A DNA stretch of 64,000 bases, taken from the NCBI GenBank assembly GCA_027317865.1, contig DAHVQG010000010.1:1-64000 (forward strand), written 5' to 3'. The notes beneath the pieces were generated by a model, which saw nothing but the letters and a program-made list of their open reading frames with translations, searched no databases and was not told the origin of the DNA. Position numbers and translations under genes: made by a program. This document shows positions 4,214 to 62,855 of this stretch, piece by piece (within the stretch, counting starts at the first letter, position 1; each line of letters opens with the position of its first letter). This stretch comes from Bdellovibrionales bacterium (lineage in GTDB: Bacteria; Bdellovibrionota; Bdellovibrionia; Bdellovibrionales; UBA1609).

Positions 4214-5119
4214 TCAGGAGTAAGCCCCTAGGAGTATCAGAAGCCTTAGAAGGCAATCATCAAGGTGTTTATCGCGACGGATACGGCTCGATAATGCGAG
4301 CTGACTGCGCATATACCAAGAACATTTTGAGTCCTCAATCATGTTTAGTGTTTTTAGCTGCTCTGAAGTTAGTTGCCCCTTGTATAACCGCGCGACTGCA
4401 ATTGCCTGACGGTGCCACGGCGTTAAGGCTCTATTCTTATAGAGTCGATTCAGTCGGTTCAACCAACTTTTAAAAAACCCTGACGGAGCGCCAGAATTAT
4501 TGTTCTTATGCTGTCTGTATTTGAGCGACGGTCTCGGATCAAAAATGACATCGCCGACGGCGGCTACAACAAGATAGCACCACCAGTCGTGAGTAAGGGC
4601 CAGGTCGGTTGGGTTATGCGCGACAATAAGGTCACGGGCGACGCGGTTCAATACCATTGTGCAACCATAGGTCAGGCATTCCACGAGCGCGGACCGAAAG
4701 CTAATCTCCTTCGGCATGAGGGGGGGGCCACATGTTTCAAGCTGTTCATTTACACGCTCAAAACTGCTGGCATACAATGCGGGCCGATCTTTAAGCGATG
4801 AAAGCGAATTTATTGCACGTTCAATCTTATCGGGGAACCAAACGTCATCTTGATCGGAAAACGCATAGTAGTCGGCATCGCCCGAATTCATAAGCAAAGT
4901 CAGAAAGCTCTTTGCGTAACCGAGATTTTCCCCCGCTTCGACAAGAATCATTTGAGGATGCTTTTGTTGGTAACTGCGTAAAATGTCTGTCGTGTTGTCT
5001 GAGGAGCCGTCATCGCGAATTCGAATGCGGATATCCTTGACCGTTTGGCCGAGAAGACTGTCGAGTTGTTCGACTAAGAATTCTTCGCCATTAAAGGTAG
5101 AAAGCAAGATCTCGACCAT
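4214..5119 (-). CDS. Glycosyltransferase family 2 (RgpB-like rhamnosyltransferase)
   Basis: ILLSTFNGEEFL, RDDGSSD, FSDQDDVW, HDWW, YRQH; ATG at 5119 preceded by GAGGA. Confidence 0.88.
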   Translation of the reverse strand: MVEILLSTFNGEEFLVEQLDSLLGQTVKDIRIRIRDDGSSDNTTDILRSYQQKHPQMILVEAGENLGYAKSFLTLLMNSGDADYYAFSDQDDVWFPDKIERAINSLSSLKDRPALYASSFERVNEQLETCGPPLMPKEISFRSALVECLTYGCTMVLNRVARDLIVAHNPTDLALTHDWWCYLVVAAVGDVIFDPRPSLKYRQHKNNNSGAPSGFFKSWLNRLNRLYKNRALTPWHRQAIAVARLYKGQLTSEQLKTLNMIEDSKCSWYMRSQLALSSRIRRDKHLDDCLLRLLILLGAYS

Positions 5120-58126: not shown

Positions 58127-59813
<1,687 letters not shown>

Positions 59814-59826
59814 TTTTTAAAGATTA

Positions 59827-59855
59827 AAATAAAAAACCCTCGGGATTACCGAGGG
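59827..59855 (-). terminator. Intrinsic terminator downstream of the basic microprotein gene
   Basis: Minus strand CCCTCGG-TAATC-CCGAGGG followed by TTTTTTATTT. Confidence 0.8.
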
Positions 59856-59883
59856 CCATTTCGTTTCGAAAAAAGCGCGACCG

Positions 59884-59964
59884 CTATTTTCTTTTGCGTG
59901 TCGTTTTACGAGTTGTTTTTTTCGTAGCTTTTTTCTTTGTAGCTTTTTTCTTTTTTCTTGCCAT
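59884..59964 (-). CDS. 26-aa Lys/Arg-rich protamine/histone-H1-like microprotein (MARKKKKATKKKATKKTTRKTTRKRK), not in ORF track
   Basis: Translated by hand; RBS GAGGGG 5 nt before ATG; own promoter and terminator. Confidence 0.8.
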   Translation of the reverse strand: MARKKKKATKKKATKKTTRKTTRKRK

Positions 59965-59988
59965 GTGATCCCCTCACTTTCTTCTTTG

Positions 59989-60018
59989 ACTATAGAGTGT
60001 GTAGAAAAAATACGTCAA
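59989..60018 (-). promoter_or_regulatory. Sigma70-type promoter of the microprotein gene
   Basis: Minus strand TTGACG-N18-TATAGT, with A-tract-rich DNA upstream. Confidence 0.7.
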
Positions 60019-60151
60019 ACGATTTTTTCATAAAAGTTTCGATTTTTATTTTTTGTCGCACAAAATTTCTTTTTATCGCGCATGTTTTTTGCATTTCTTT
60101 TTTTTCGAGACGAATTTCACGCGAAAAATTGTTCGCGCGACGGAGTTTTGA

Positions 60152-60907
60152 GTGCGACACGCGATTGTTTTTATCGAAATGTCGGCCGGAATGATCACTT
60201 TAGTCCGAATTTTTGCACAAATTCGGAAAAATTCGCTCGTGTCCAACGAAGCGATGACAAAAATTGTCGCTGCTTTTTTTGTCTGCGAGTGTTTGCTCGC
60301 GCTTGTGCCGGCGCGATCAATGATTGCATTCACTATCTGTTGGTCTGTACCGATCGCAGTTGCATCTTTTTTGCCAACGATCATTCGACGCCGTCGCCGT
60401 CAGCACTTTTTGCGACACCGGATTTGGATTTTAAACTGTCTGATTTTAAATACACGCTTAGGAATTGGGCTTCGCCGCGCTCTTGTGCAGACGAGTGACC
60501 GTGCCGATTTCTATATCAAAACTCGGCTCCGCCAACTTCACGATCGCTTGATCACAGAAACTAAAGGAAGTTCGAGTCATGCTCCAATGGACCCTGTTTT
60601 GCACGAATTGTACGAAACTCTTTGGCTTTGCGAGAGCGAAGCTCATCTCACGGTTCAAAGATTGGTGAATTATCGCCAGAAAATAGAAATTTATGAAGAA
60701 TTTCGCCGCAAATCGGATCAGGCTTTGCACCAACTTCGCGCTCAAGCTTATGTGCTAACCGGACTTTATGCGGGGCTTTTGTTGTTTGTTATATCGCGGT
60801 TCGGTTTTACCCAACACGAAAGAGCCATAATGCTGTCGGCAATGTTGTTTTTACTTGGTGTATTTATAACTCTAAGACAGGGGCGAAATATAAAATGGAG
60901 CGTTTAG
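60152..60907 (+). CDS. Divergent TadB-like (T2SSF) membrane protein
   Basis: N-terminal TMs, RLGIGLRRAL helix, RRK..QALHQLRAQAYVL, two C-terminal TMs. Confidence 0.55.
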   Translation: MRHAIVFIEMSAGMITLVRIFAQIRKNSLVSNEAMTKIVAAFFVCECLLALVPARSMIAFTICWSVPIAVASFLPTIIRRRRRQHFLRHRIWILNCLILNTRLGIGLRRALVQTSDRADFYIKTRLRQLHDRLITETKGSSSHAPMDPVLHELYETLWLCESEAHLTVQRLVNYRQKIEIYEEFRRKSDQALHQLRAQAYVLTGLYAGLLLFVISRFGFTQHERAIMLSAMLFLLGVFITLRQGRNIKWSV

Positions 60908-61329
60908 CCCCGCCGCTTGAATTGTGCATTTCGCTACGTCTTGGTATCGAAAGCGGTCAGTCGGTCATGCGAGTCATTAAAAAGTTTAAAATGCACGGCC
61001 GAGATGAAATGTCGTGTGATCTTGCGATGGTGCTTGCGGCCTTTGAGCGCGGCGAAACGGTAAAACTTCGTCCCGAAACCAATAATTTGCTCTACCGACG
61101 TGCGCTATTAGAATTAATCGAGGCGGGGCTAAGGGGCGAACCGATTTTAAATCAACTCAAAGAACTTGAGACCGAGATCCTAAAAGCCTGCCACTCGGAC
61201 ATCGATAAATACGTGGCGGCATTGCCGATGCGTACGATGATTCCGCTTATGTTGATACAATTTCCGGCTTTTTTGTTGTTACTGTTGGGTCCCATTGTAA
61301 GCGAACTCATTAGGGGGTTAAGTTCATGA
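60895..61329 (+). CDS. Short TadC-like (T2SSF) protein
   Basis: ESGQSV, G.PILNQL, MIPLMLIQFPAFLLLLLGP C-terminus. Confidence 0.6.
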   Translation: MERLAPPLELCISLRLGIESGQSVMRVIKKFKMHGRDEMSCDLAMVLAAFERGETVKLRPETNNLLYRRALLELIEAGLRGEPILNQLKELETEILKACHSDIDKYVAALPMRTMIPLMLIQFPAFLLLLLGPIVSELIRGLSS

Positions 61330-61781: not shown

Positions 61782-62855
61782 ATGGAGTCCGTTCTGACTA
61801 AACCATATCAGTATCGCATTGTGGAGTGCCTTGGCGAGGGGCTAAACAGCTGTGTTTACCGGGCTTTTAAACAATCAAACGAACTCAATGTGAGATTTGA
61901 GGTCGCGCTTAAAATTCTTAAGTCCAAGAATTTGGAAGCACTTTGGAGAAATGAGTTTGAGCGGCTCATCTGCGTCAAGTCGCGGCACTGCGTGGCACTT
62001 CATGGTTGGGAGTTAATTAACAACTCTCCCGCACTTGTTCTCGAATATGTACGAGGGGTCAATTTGGCCGAACTTGTGAAGTATGTCGAACTAAACAAAG
62101 AAAATATCGACTGCATCTATGGACAAGCGCGCCGCGGCCTTAGAGATTTGGCACAGGTGGCACTTTTTCACGGCGATTTAAATCTCAACAATATCATGGT
62201 TGATGACACGGGCGTCGTGAAGCTTGTGGATTTCGGCGTCCGAAACGGGCACAAAGACTACCTTGTCACACCTAAATTTGCCGCTCCTTCAGTACTTATG
62301 GGCGAAGAACCAAATATCGAAACCGATATATTTAGCCTCGAGGCAATTTGTCTAGAGATCGAGCTTAATCACTCAAGCCATGTGCCCGACGACGGCAGTG
62401 TAGGAGGTCCAAAGCAAGTTGGTAATGCACCGGAGTTTGCGACCCATGATCTGGCCAAAAAGGTTCGGATCGCCATGAAAAGGCGCGAGAATGGGCGGGT
62501 ACGAACGAACGCATACAAGGCGCCGCGTTCGTTCCGGTTATCGCGGCAAACATTATTTCAAAGTATTGGAGTCGGATTTATATGCCTATTTTTTTCTATT
62601 TTGTCTCAGGGTGATTCCACCCGGCATTTGCCGACGCCGCCAGCTCGTCTCATCGTGCGAACAGTGAAATGGGTGAAAATCGCTGTGAACGGGCACGACT
62701 ATGGATATTCGCCGGTAAACATCTCACTATCAGCGACGCGCATGGTTCATTTGCAATGGTTCGGATCGGCGGGCCAAGGGGGGCGCACGATTGCGCTCAT
62801 CCCAGGGCAAACTAAATTCTTAACAGACAATTTTTTTAGTCCTGACTCAAAATAA
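61782..62855 (+). CDS. Hanks-type Ser/Thr protein kinase with TM helix and PEGA-like C-terminus
   Basis: LGEGLNSCVY, VALKILK, HGDLNLNN, LVDFG, DIFSL; TM; VNGHDYGYSP. Confidence 0.82.
   Translation: MESVLTKPYQYRIVECLGEGLNSCVYRAFKQSNELNVRFEVALKILKSKNLEALWRNEFERLICVKSRHCVALHGWELINNSPALVLEYVRGVNLAELVKYVELNKENIDCIYGQARRGLRDLAQVALFHGDLNLNNIMVDDTGVVKLVDFGVRNGHKDYLVTPKFAAPSVLMGEEPNIETDIFSLEAICLEIELNHSSHVPDDGSVGGPKQVGNAPEFATHDLAKKVRIAMKRRENGRVRTNAYKAPRSFRLSRQTLFQSIGVGFICLFFSILSQGDSTRHLPTPPARLIVRTVKWVKIAVNGHDYGYSPVNISLSATRMVHLQWFGSAGQGGRTIALIPGQTKFLTDNFFSPDSK

Follow-up and report, generated by a model that had tools for sequence, protein, structure and literature searches.

A conserved Lys-rich micro-ORF upstream of mdh in Bdellovibrionales encodes a candidate nucleic-acid-binding polycation

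Introduction

Bacteria are known to make Lys-rich proteins that resemble histone H1. A conserved form that stands free, measures only 23-28 residues and has a promoter and a terminator of its own appears to be undescribed. Such a form is presented here from a Bdellovibrionales bacterium (UBA1609; assembly GCA_027317865.1), in which positions 1 to 64,000 of contig DAHVQG010000010.1 (the whole 64,000-nt stretch analysed, hereafter the window) carry a minus-strand open reading frame (ORF) of 26 codons upstream of the malate dehydrogenase gene mdh. The reading favoured here, if tentatively, is that this micro-ORF encodes a polycation made at a high level and similar to the chlamydial protein Hc2 or to an H1 tail on its own, which by analogy with these proteins would bind nucleic acid and most likely DNA.

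Several described systems bear on this proposal. The C-terminal tail of linker histone H1 is a Lys/Ala/Thr-rich, charge-driven DNA binder that lacks order in the free state and turns helical on binding, and Lys/Ala-rich polycations such as H1 tails become helical only once their charge is neutralised. In protamines, arginine is the dominant residue. ScvA of Coxiella burnetii, an Arg/Gln-rich protein of about 30 residues, is the nearest precedent for a DNA-binding peptide this small. One report describes ScvA and Hq1 as small basic DNA-binding proteins that are enriched in the small-cell variant of C. burnetii, which has condensed chromatin (PMC4766238).

Repeat number and length are reported to vary in Hc2 (PMC2848022). 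In AlgP and PhaF, the domain made of KPAA repeats is described as binding DNA as well as polyphosphate (polyP) or polyhydroxyalkanoate granules, with a repeat number that varies between isolates (PMC9239181). A further class is formed by the ribosomal microproteins bS22, eL41 and bL37, which are described as single helices of about 24-33 residues with about 60% Lys and Arg (K/R), often non-annotated and invisible to tryptic mass spectrometry (MS) (PMC10618245).

Gene structure in the window

The micro-ORF occupies 59884..59964 (-), starts with ATG and runs for 26 codons plus a TAG stop, giving the product MARKKKKATKKKATKKTTRKTTRKRK. Its promoter-like sequence, TTGACG-N18-TATAGT (60018-59989, -), agrees with the consensus at 10/12 positions and was recovered by a promoter scan; the -35 hexamer TTGACG lies at 60013..60018 (-) and, after the N18 spacer, the -10 hexamer TATAGT at 59989..59994 (-). 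Directly upstream of the -35 hexamer is an A/T-rich tract at 60019..60063 (-) that includes a GCGACAAAAAA box and has an equivalent in 20 related loci. The tract is UP-element-like, a term used here as a label and not as a functional assignment. A Shine-Dalgarno sequence, GAGGGG, is found at 59970..59975 (-), 5 nt ahead of the ATG. The unit closes with an intrinsic terminator at 59825..59857 (-), made up of a stem-loop (59857-59835; nine pairs, six of them G-C, with a 5-nt loop) followed by TTTTATTTTA, the T-rich tail reaching to 59825. The predicted transcript of ~160 nt folds with the terminator hairpin intact (z = -3.95 vs shuffles), and the same hairpin also faces the convergent gene at 59040-59813 (+). 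An original prediction, made by reading the window without any comparison, had proposed this promoter, ribosome-binding site, ORF and terminator, and all of them were located where it had placed them.

The peptide consists of 12 K, 6 T, 4 R, 3 A and 1 M, with zero acidic, aromatic or large hydrophobic residues. K+R amount to 62%. The peptide weighs 3131.9 Da with its Met and 3000.7 Da once this is lost. At the DNA level the ORF contains two tandem repeats, one of 15 nt x2.5 (KKKAT) and one of 12 nt x2.3 (RKTT). It is the sole ORF of the 64-kb window that passes a filter of K+R >= 45%, at most one D/E and a length of 15-70 aa.

Taken alone, the signals in the window are not significant; the case for the gene rests on comparison with relatives. 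A 2-kb scan returned 3 promoter-like sites, which is no excess over shuffled sequence (2.7 +/- 1.8), and 5 terminator-like sites, which does not differ significantly from shuffles (3.3 +/- 1.8). Similarly, the chance of an open 26-codon frame in DNA this A-rich is roughly one-in-three by our base-composition estimate.

Conservation across Bdellovibrionales

The comparison set comprised 80 loci anchored on mdh (58130-59071, -, in the window), with one genome per species. The anchor gene was identified as malate dehydrogenase (MDH) by TIGR01763 (481.6 bits), and the closest loci came from metagenome-assembled genomes of Bdellovibrionales and Pseudobdellovibrionaceae with 74-82% MDH identity. A complete homologous ORF was found in 20/80 loci, in each case on the mdh strand, upstream of mdh and built from K/A/T/R repeats. 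The search for syntenic basic micro-ORFs near mdh that had been suggested as a check thus succeeded in 20 other species, with the reading frame conserved. The homologues begin with MAKKK, apart from MAAKKK in L015 and MAKR in L003. Four further loci (L006, L032, L042 and L034) contain the 3' part of the ORF, cut at the locus edge, and in L008 only the terminator is in view at the locus start. In the remaining close loci an opposite-strand gene array runs past the 5-kb flank, so that the micro-ORF site falls outside the fetched DNA, while more distant loci have another upstream gene order and no such ORF within the fetched DNA.

Gene order around the micro-ORF is also preserved. All micro-ORFs sit between mdh and a divergent gene (c15), in the order [kinase or others]-c18-c15 on one strand, micro-ORF on the other strand, zero to six array genes on the opposite strand, and mdh-sucC-sucD. 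Both c15 and c18 adjoin the micro-ORF in every locus with that side in view, and the intergenic region is shared with the micro-ORF promoter. The left neighbour is constant in this arrangement, and the distance from micro-ORF to mdh ranges from 219 to 4725 nt across units because the copy number of the array gene changes.

Including the window, 21 complete units are available, 15 of which encode 23-28 aa; the others measure 46, 56, 58, 79, 85 and 124 aa. An MDH tree was built from 49 rows, namely the window and those 48 of L001-L052 that translate without a stop (L038, L047, L048 and L051 were dropped, and loci above L052 were not used). Every carrier falls within one clade of 39 rows (support 100/99), and the micro-ORF family is confined, as far as seen in these sequences, to this one clade of Bdellovibrionales. 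Repeat expansion has taken place on at least two branches, in a long-form subclade and in L019 inside the 24-aa subclade; L052, with 23 aa, nests within the long-form subclade.

The same tree shows that species labels of metagenome bins are not always reliable. L049, labelled Nitrosovibrio sp., is near-identical to the Bdellovibrionales locus L050, and L034, labelled Deltaproteobacteria bacterium, lies inside the Pseudobdellovibrionaceae clade.

Evidence for coding and translation

The signals of a translated gene recur throughout the family. Every one of the 21 units starts with ATG GCN, and GGAG/GAGG is present at -16..-4 of the ATG in 21/21, compared with 4.1% of 2000 positions picked at random. 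Within 110 nt after the stop, 20/21 units have a G+C-rich hairpin and a T-run, a combination found at 2.5% of random positions; the exception is L033, where the hairpin is imperfect. What had been put forward as a complete, monocistronic unit for a small protein has its promoter, Shine-Dalgarno sequence, frame, codon structure and terminator conserved in 21 species.

The codons themselves are under visible constraint. The 800 internal codons of the 21 units encode K 428, A 173, T 127, R 57, V 9, S 3 and P 3, and no other residue. The share of thymine is 0.4% at the first codon position, 1.1% at the second and 28.5% at the third, and the one-step neighbours of AAA that encode Glu, Gln, Asn, Ile or a stop have zero occurrences. 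Pooled pN/pS is 0.31 (28 pairs among eight 24-aa genes). Length change proceeds by in-frame tandem duplication, for example of 27 nt x11 in L015 and of 54 nt x2.4 at 100% identity in L022. The repeat periods that track the protein repeats are all multiples of three; Tandem Repeats Finder (TRF) also lists an 11-nt row in L015 and a 7-nt row in the window.

A further constraint concerns runs of adenine. The longest A-run in any of the 21 ORFs is 7 bases, kept short through alternation of AAG and AAA. When AAA and AAG were shuffled among each gene's Lys codons, 26.6 A-runs of at least 8 were expected and 0 were observed, and 0/2000 shuffles gave a count as low. AAG contributes 44% of Lys codons vs 27% in long ORFs of the same loci. 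This cap is what selection against poly(A) slippage would produce in a frame that matters, and the family provides a clean natural example of slippage avoidance in codon choice.

Three explanations without a Lys-rich protein were considered at this point. The locus might specify an A-rich small RNA (sRNA), such as an Hfq- or ribosome-binding sponge, with an incidental ORF. This would suit the short ~160-nt transcript, its strong terminator and its folding (z = -3.95), and B. bacteriovorus makes very abundant sRNAs from intergenic regions (PMC3627812). It is highly improbable given the ATG and Shine-Dalgarno sequence in 21/21 units, the strict codon structure, the in-frame expansions and the pN/pS of 0.31. 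In addition, Rfam 15 returned no match at gathering score for 59000-61000; all 11 matches at E <= 10 were sub-gathering, the best with 20.3 bits vs 60.

A second explanation is a Lys/Thr-rich leader peptide that attenuates a downstream operon at the hairpin, as might be imagined for an ORF that is short, encodes much Lys and Thr, both of the aspartate family, and is followed by a terminator. Co-directional mdh is the next gene in 4/21 units (L015, L022, L031 and L052), but the next gene is convergent in 17/21, which leaves nothing to attenuate there. The ORF also reaches 124 aa and the fold offers no alternative antiterminator pairing, making attenuation extremely improbable.

Thirdly, the gene might lie on the opposite strand, where a TTG-started ORF of 24 aa in the window (59894-59968 +, MRVVLRVVFF...) would give a Phe/Val-rich hydrophobic peptide, for instance a type I toxin. 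Across the family, a Shine-Dalgarno-like motif precedes 0/21 of the longest antisense ORFs, 6/21 of which are under 20 aa, and the promoter, Shine-Dalgarno sequence and terminator T-run are all oriented for the Lys-rich strand, so that the chance of an antisense gene is next to negligible. The attenuator leader, the antisense hydrophobic peptide and the pure sRNA were accordingly rejected, on the basis of the convergent next genes, the lack of an antisense Shine-Dalgarno sequence and the coding signals.

Sequence comparison demonstrates the gene structure and its conservation, selection on the coding frame and on amino-acid composition, and repeat-driven length change. On these grounds, the stand-alone gene is almost certainly genuine and translated.

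Signs of strong expression

In 21/21 units the ORF is preceded by TTGAC(G/C) behind an A/T-rich tract (GCAAAAA ... AATTTTTTA). A -10-like hexamer lies 16-18 nt past TTGAC(G/C) in 19/21 units by scan and is visible in the other two; in the relatives it is mostly TAAACT or nAACACT, with a longer 5' untranslated region than in the window unit. Codon usage is also biased relative to long ORFs of the same loci, with GCT making up 66% vs 31% of Ala codons, ACT 66% vs 30% of Thr codons, and CGT plus AGA 79% vs 34% of Arg codons. From the near-consensus -35 hexamer with its A/T tract, the GGAGG-type ribosome-binding site, the strong terminators and the codon bias, we infer that the micro-ORF is strongly expressed.

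Database and literature searches

Standard searches have little purchase on this family. The window peptide matched no Pfam or NCBIfam model at E <= 10, and Pfam found no domain in it or in six homologues. In the Protein Data Bank (PDB), no chain matched the window peptide, ribosomal microproteins included, and the family profile recovered only an endolysin linker (E 0.27). The 46-aa homologue (L005), used as a homology query, gave 1237 candidates with common words, none at E <= 1, and hmmsearch with the family alignment A1 against 1.84 billion representatives gave 0 matches. HMMER has little power on queries this short and biased, and its composition correction evidently removes such sequences, so these blank homology searches say nothing on distribution.

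The gene had been predicted to be missed by annotation. This is borne out indirectly, as the window peptide and 10 homologues were all absent from ~15 billion predicted proteins in an exact look-up. Likewise, no description of the peptide was found in the literature, including by a four-motif search, with ~1.7 million PMC articles as well as subscription journals outside the coverage.

Among the longer homologues, the only matches in Pfam and NCBIfam lay below threshold, and they were to Hc2 and a Burkholderia H1-like model. L015, the longest homologue, matched Hc2 at E 0.014 with 15.9 bits vs a cut-off of 40 for PF07382, and at 12.1 vs 135 for NF038052. L019 scored 8.0 bits against Hc2, and the 4 other homologues of the six profiled had no match. 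In the ESM Atlas, related clusters were named "hypothetical protein", save for one (the nearest named), in which 23% of members carry HC2.

Properties and possible function of the peptide

The composition of the peptide does not permit a hydrophobic core. AlphaFold2 (AF2) with the family alignment modelled the 46-aa member as one continuous helix (pLDDT 86), and the ESM Atlas model of the 85-aa member is of low confidence (pLDDT 0.48). Lys is strongly preferred over Arg, with K:R = 7.5:1 in the family vs 1.6:1 in long ORFs of the same loci. Given the constant alphabet, the five-fold length range and this Lys preference, function appears to lie in charge and composition and not in a defined surface. 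Judged by sequence, the peptide is probably a polyanion-binding polycation.

A mechanism can be outlined along these lines. The sigma-70-type promoter, A/T-rich tract and strong Shine-Dalgarno sequence would drive high expression from a short mRNA ending at the intrinsic terminator. The product would be a Lys/Ala/Thr/Arg polycation of ~3.0 kDa after Met removal, with a charge of ~+16. Lacking a hydrophobic core, it would probably be helical only when lying on a polyanion, and it may act through composition and charge instead of a specific fold, binding and neutralising phosphate backbones. The most likely target would be chromosomal DNA, with nucleoid compaction as the outcome, as with a free histone-H1 tail or chlamydial Hc2.

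DNA is proposed as the target for four reasons. The only profile matches, although sub-threshold, are to Hc2 and the Burkholderia H1-like model; Hc2 and AlgP are both known to vary in repeat number; in the small-cell variants of Coxiella, condensed chromatin goes together with small basic peptides that bind DNA; and the extreme compaction of non-replicating B. bacteriovorus cells still lacks an explanation. By these analogies, DNA or the nucleoid may be the main target, an assignment that falls somewhat short of an even bet.

Several observations weigh against the peptide being an H1-tail-like DNA binder. The similarity to Hc2 stays far under the curated cut-offs and is largely compositional. 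The expected site is visible in L020 and L029 and holds no micro-ORF, and none of the 10 tree rows outside the 39-row clade has the ORF. Bd0055, a histone-fold protein, is already the most abundant nucleoid protein of B. bacteriovorus (PMC10627809). The micro-ORF promoter is sigma-70-like, whereas in B. bacteriovorus most promoters of the attack phase are of the FliA type, with TTAAG-N16-CCGATA found at 92/140 (PMC3627812). Ribosomal microproteins just as typically show strong codon bias, an A/T-rich tract upstream and one predicted helix, and their size and charge also match, the K+R share being 62% in the window peptide vs 61% in Borrelia bS22. Binding to a polyanion, a main target in DNA and compaction are all steps that we infer. 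On the question of the promoter, histone-like nucleoid-associated protein (NAP) genes of B. bacteriovorus are reported to peak in late growth phase (bioRxiv 10.1101/2025.09.24.678257), so a sigma-70-like promoter is compatible with a part in forming the compact nucleoid.

The ribosome offers another destination for such a peptide. The product might be a ribosome-bound microprotein analogous to bS22, eL41 or bTHX, a polycationic helix in or on rRNA that serves as a stoichiometric or growth-state-dependent component. A promoter-like site with an A/T tract, a strong Shine-Dalgarno sequence and codon bias are what would be expected of genes of the translation machinery, and the AF2 model is a single helix. 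There is also a close parallel in Borrelia, where bS22 is described as the product of a non-annotated 93-nt gene of ~30 codons with 61% K/R and an abundant transcript, and as the only ribosomal protein missed by liquid chromatography-tandem MS (LC-MS/MS) (PMC10618245). A range of 23-124 aa within one clade, generated by tandem duplication, is nevertheless hard to fit into a fixed rRNA pocket, and 6/21 members measure 46-124 aa vs a constant size of ~30 residues. The family is low-complexity sequence throughout and has none of the anchor residues, hydrophobic or aromatic, known from eL41 and bS22. No ribosomal chain or model was matched in NCBIfam, Pfam or the PDB, which is a weak argument because of how HMMER treats such sequences. 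Overall, a ribosomal role is unlikely.

Two further roles start from the same charge. A polyP binder or granule organiser, comparable to an anchorless Lys-rich tail of AlgP or PhaF, or more generally a genetically encoded substitute for polyamines, would agree with a Lys-rich low-complexity polycation, and the C-terminal KPAA domain of AlgP associates with polyP granules and binds DNA (PMC9239181). The micro-ORF family has no KPAA motif (Pro 3/800 codons) and no structured N-terminal domain, no polyP genes were recognised among the scanned neighbours, and nothing ties the gene specifically to polyP, so that such a role is quite improbable. An exported polycation directed at prey, acting as an antimicrobial or a cell-penetrating peptide or condensing the DNA of the prey, would gain some appeal from the assignment of the carriers to a predatory order, and cationic polypeptides are described as antibacterial (PMC2180412). 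Export is very improbable, since the peptide lacks a signal peptide and presents neither a hydrophobic nor an amphipathic face, and no export or processing genes were recognised next to it; that the carriers are themselves predatory is an assumption only.

Returning to the H1-tail-like reading, a bolder and distinctly doubtful extension would make the free 23-28-residue "H1 tail" a major chromatin component of Bdellovibrio-like bacteria and the missing factor behind their extreme, transcription- and translation-independent nucleoid compaction. Dosage would be adjusted by repeat expansion (up to 124 aa), and activity perhaps switched by Thr phosphorylation from a neighbouring Ser/Thr kinase.

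A Hanks-type Ser/Thr kinase is encoded in the window at 61782-62855 (+) (Pkinase E 9e-22), within the block of conserved genes that lies upstream of the micro-ORF. This kinase is present in 4/7 units with at least 3 kb of upstream DNA (the window, L015, L022 and L052, not L007, L018 or L031). With 23% Thr, the peptide is a conceivable, if speculative, substrate.

Separately, distant Bdellovibrionota loci encode an AhpC/TSA-family peroxiredoxin with a Lys/Ala-rich N-terminal tail of 35-50 residues, which starts like the micro-ORF (MAKKKKKAAKK...). These tailed peroxiredoxins are found at L043:9093-9650 (+), L059:6890-7500 (+) and near position 4484 (+) of L049. The same kind of tail thus occurs both fused and free in Bdellovibrionota. 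A basic ORF upstream of mdh at L062:4384-4509 (+) and L041:4428-4502 (+) was rejected as a family member, being the very basic, Lys/Arg-type C-terminal tail of a longer gene directly before mdh (…AIKF.PG…KKPRKKKAKKRR…) and not stand-alone.

Neighbouring genes

The divergent neighbour c15 lies at 60152-60907 (+) in the window and c18, on the same divergent side, at 60895-61329 (+); neither belongs to a Pfam or NCBIfam family. Between the micro-ORF and mdh, the array consists of zero to six paralogous opposite-strand genes (clusters c0/x11/x5/x2), again without a Pfam or NCBIfam family. The window has a single copy, convergent to the micro-ORF and listed as a 257-aa ORF at 59040-59813 (+), while five or six copies are usual among the relatives (arrays in L002-L042, for instance L002:1087-4956). 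The mdh ORF starts mechanically at TTG 59131, and relatives align from ATG 59071 (MIHKRKKI...). With mdh starting at 59071, the listed array-gene start at 59040 falls inside mdh, and this start, too, has probably been placed too far upstream.

Significance

Gene finders and searches based on hidden Markov models (HMMs) are blind to this micro-ORF, although it is conserved in 21 species and is among the most clearly signalled small transcription units of its neighbourhood. A +16 peptide that would be invisible to tryptic proteomics is a concrete candidate for what compacts the attack-phase nucleoid in Bdellovibrio-like bacteria. Should the ribosomal reading be true instead, the family would join the non-annotated ribosomal microproteins, a growing set, as a member with variable repeats. 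Under either reading it offers a minimal polycation from nature, and its choice of codons shows that slippery poly(A) tracts are selected against.

Comparison with known systems

The original prediction had likened the peptide to protamines and to H1-like proteins. The comparison with protamines is inexact, since the family is dominated by Lys, with Arg at 4/26 in the window peptide and at 57/800 family codons vs 428 for Lys. The likeness to H1 and Hc2 is partly upheld, by the sub-threshold profile matches of the longer members and by variation in repeat number, while no curated cut-off is reached. The expected invisibility to tryptic proteomics has a precedent in Borrelia bS22, which was missed by LC-MS/MS (PMC10618245). 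The abundance, the DNA condensation and the link to attack-phase nucleoids that the prediction also proposed stay at the level of hypothesis.

Hc2 (hctB; PF07382, NF038052) is, like the micro-ORF product, a Lys/Ala/Thr low-complexity polycation made of short tandem repeats, and Lys-rich repeats of variable copy number are also a feature of the micro-ORF family (23-124 aa). Hc2 comes from another phylum, however, and has 165-237 aa vs the 26 aa of the window peptide, with 15/21 family members at 23-28 aa. As the Hc2 scores are far below the cut-offs and the window peptide has no match, homology to Hc2 is not shown. The H1 tail is similarly rich in Lys, Ala and Thr, and its helix on binding may find a counterpart in the AF2 helix predicted here, the Atlas model being of low confidence. 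The micro-ORF peptide differs in being free-standing, in its near-absence of Pro (3/800 codons) and in having no globular winged-helix domain, which a window peptide of 26 residues cannot hold.

AlgP and PhaF share bacterial "H1-like" Lys-rich repeats with the family, but theirs contain Pro and are joined to a folded N-terminal domain, whereas the micro-ORF protein is repeat throughout. ScvA and Hq1 belong to an unrelated lineage, and ScvA, which differs in composition, is likened to the peptide by function only and not by sequence. Fixed length and unique rRNA-pocket sequences characterise bS22, eL41 and bL37, in contrast to the repetitive micro-ORF family with its five-fold length range. Bd0055 is, like the micro-ORF product, a nucleoid protein candidate in the same bacterial order (PMC10627809), but differs in being a folded histone-fold protein.

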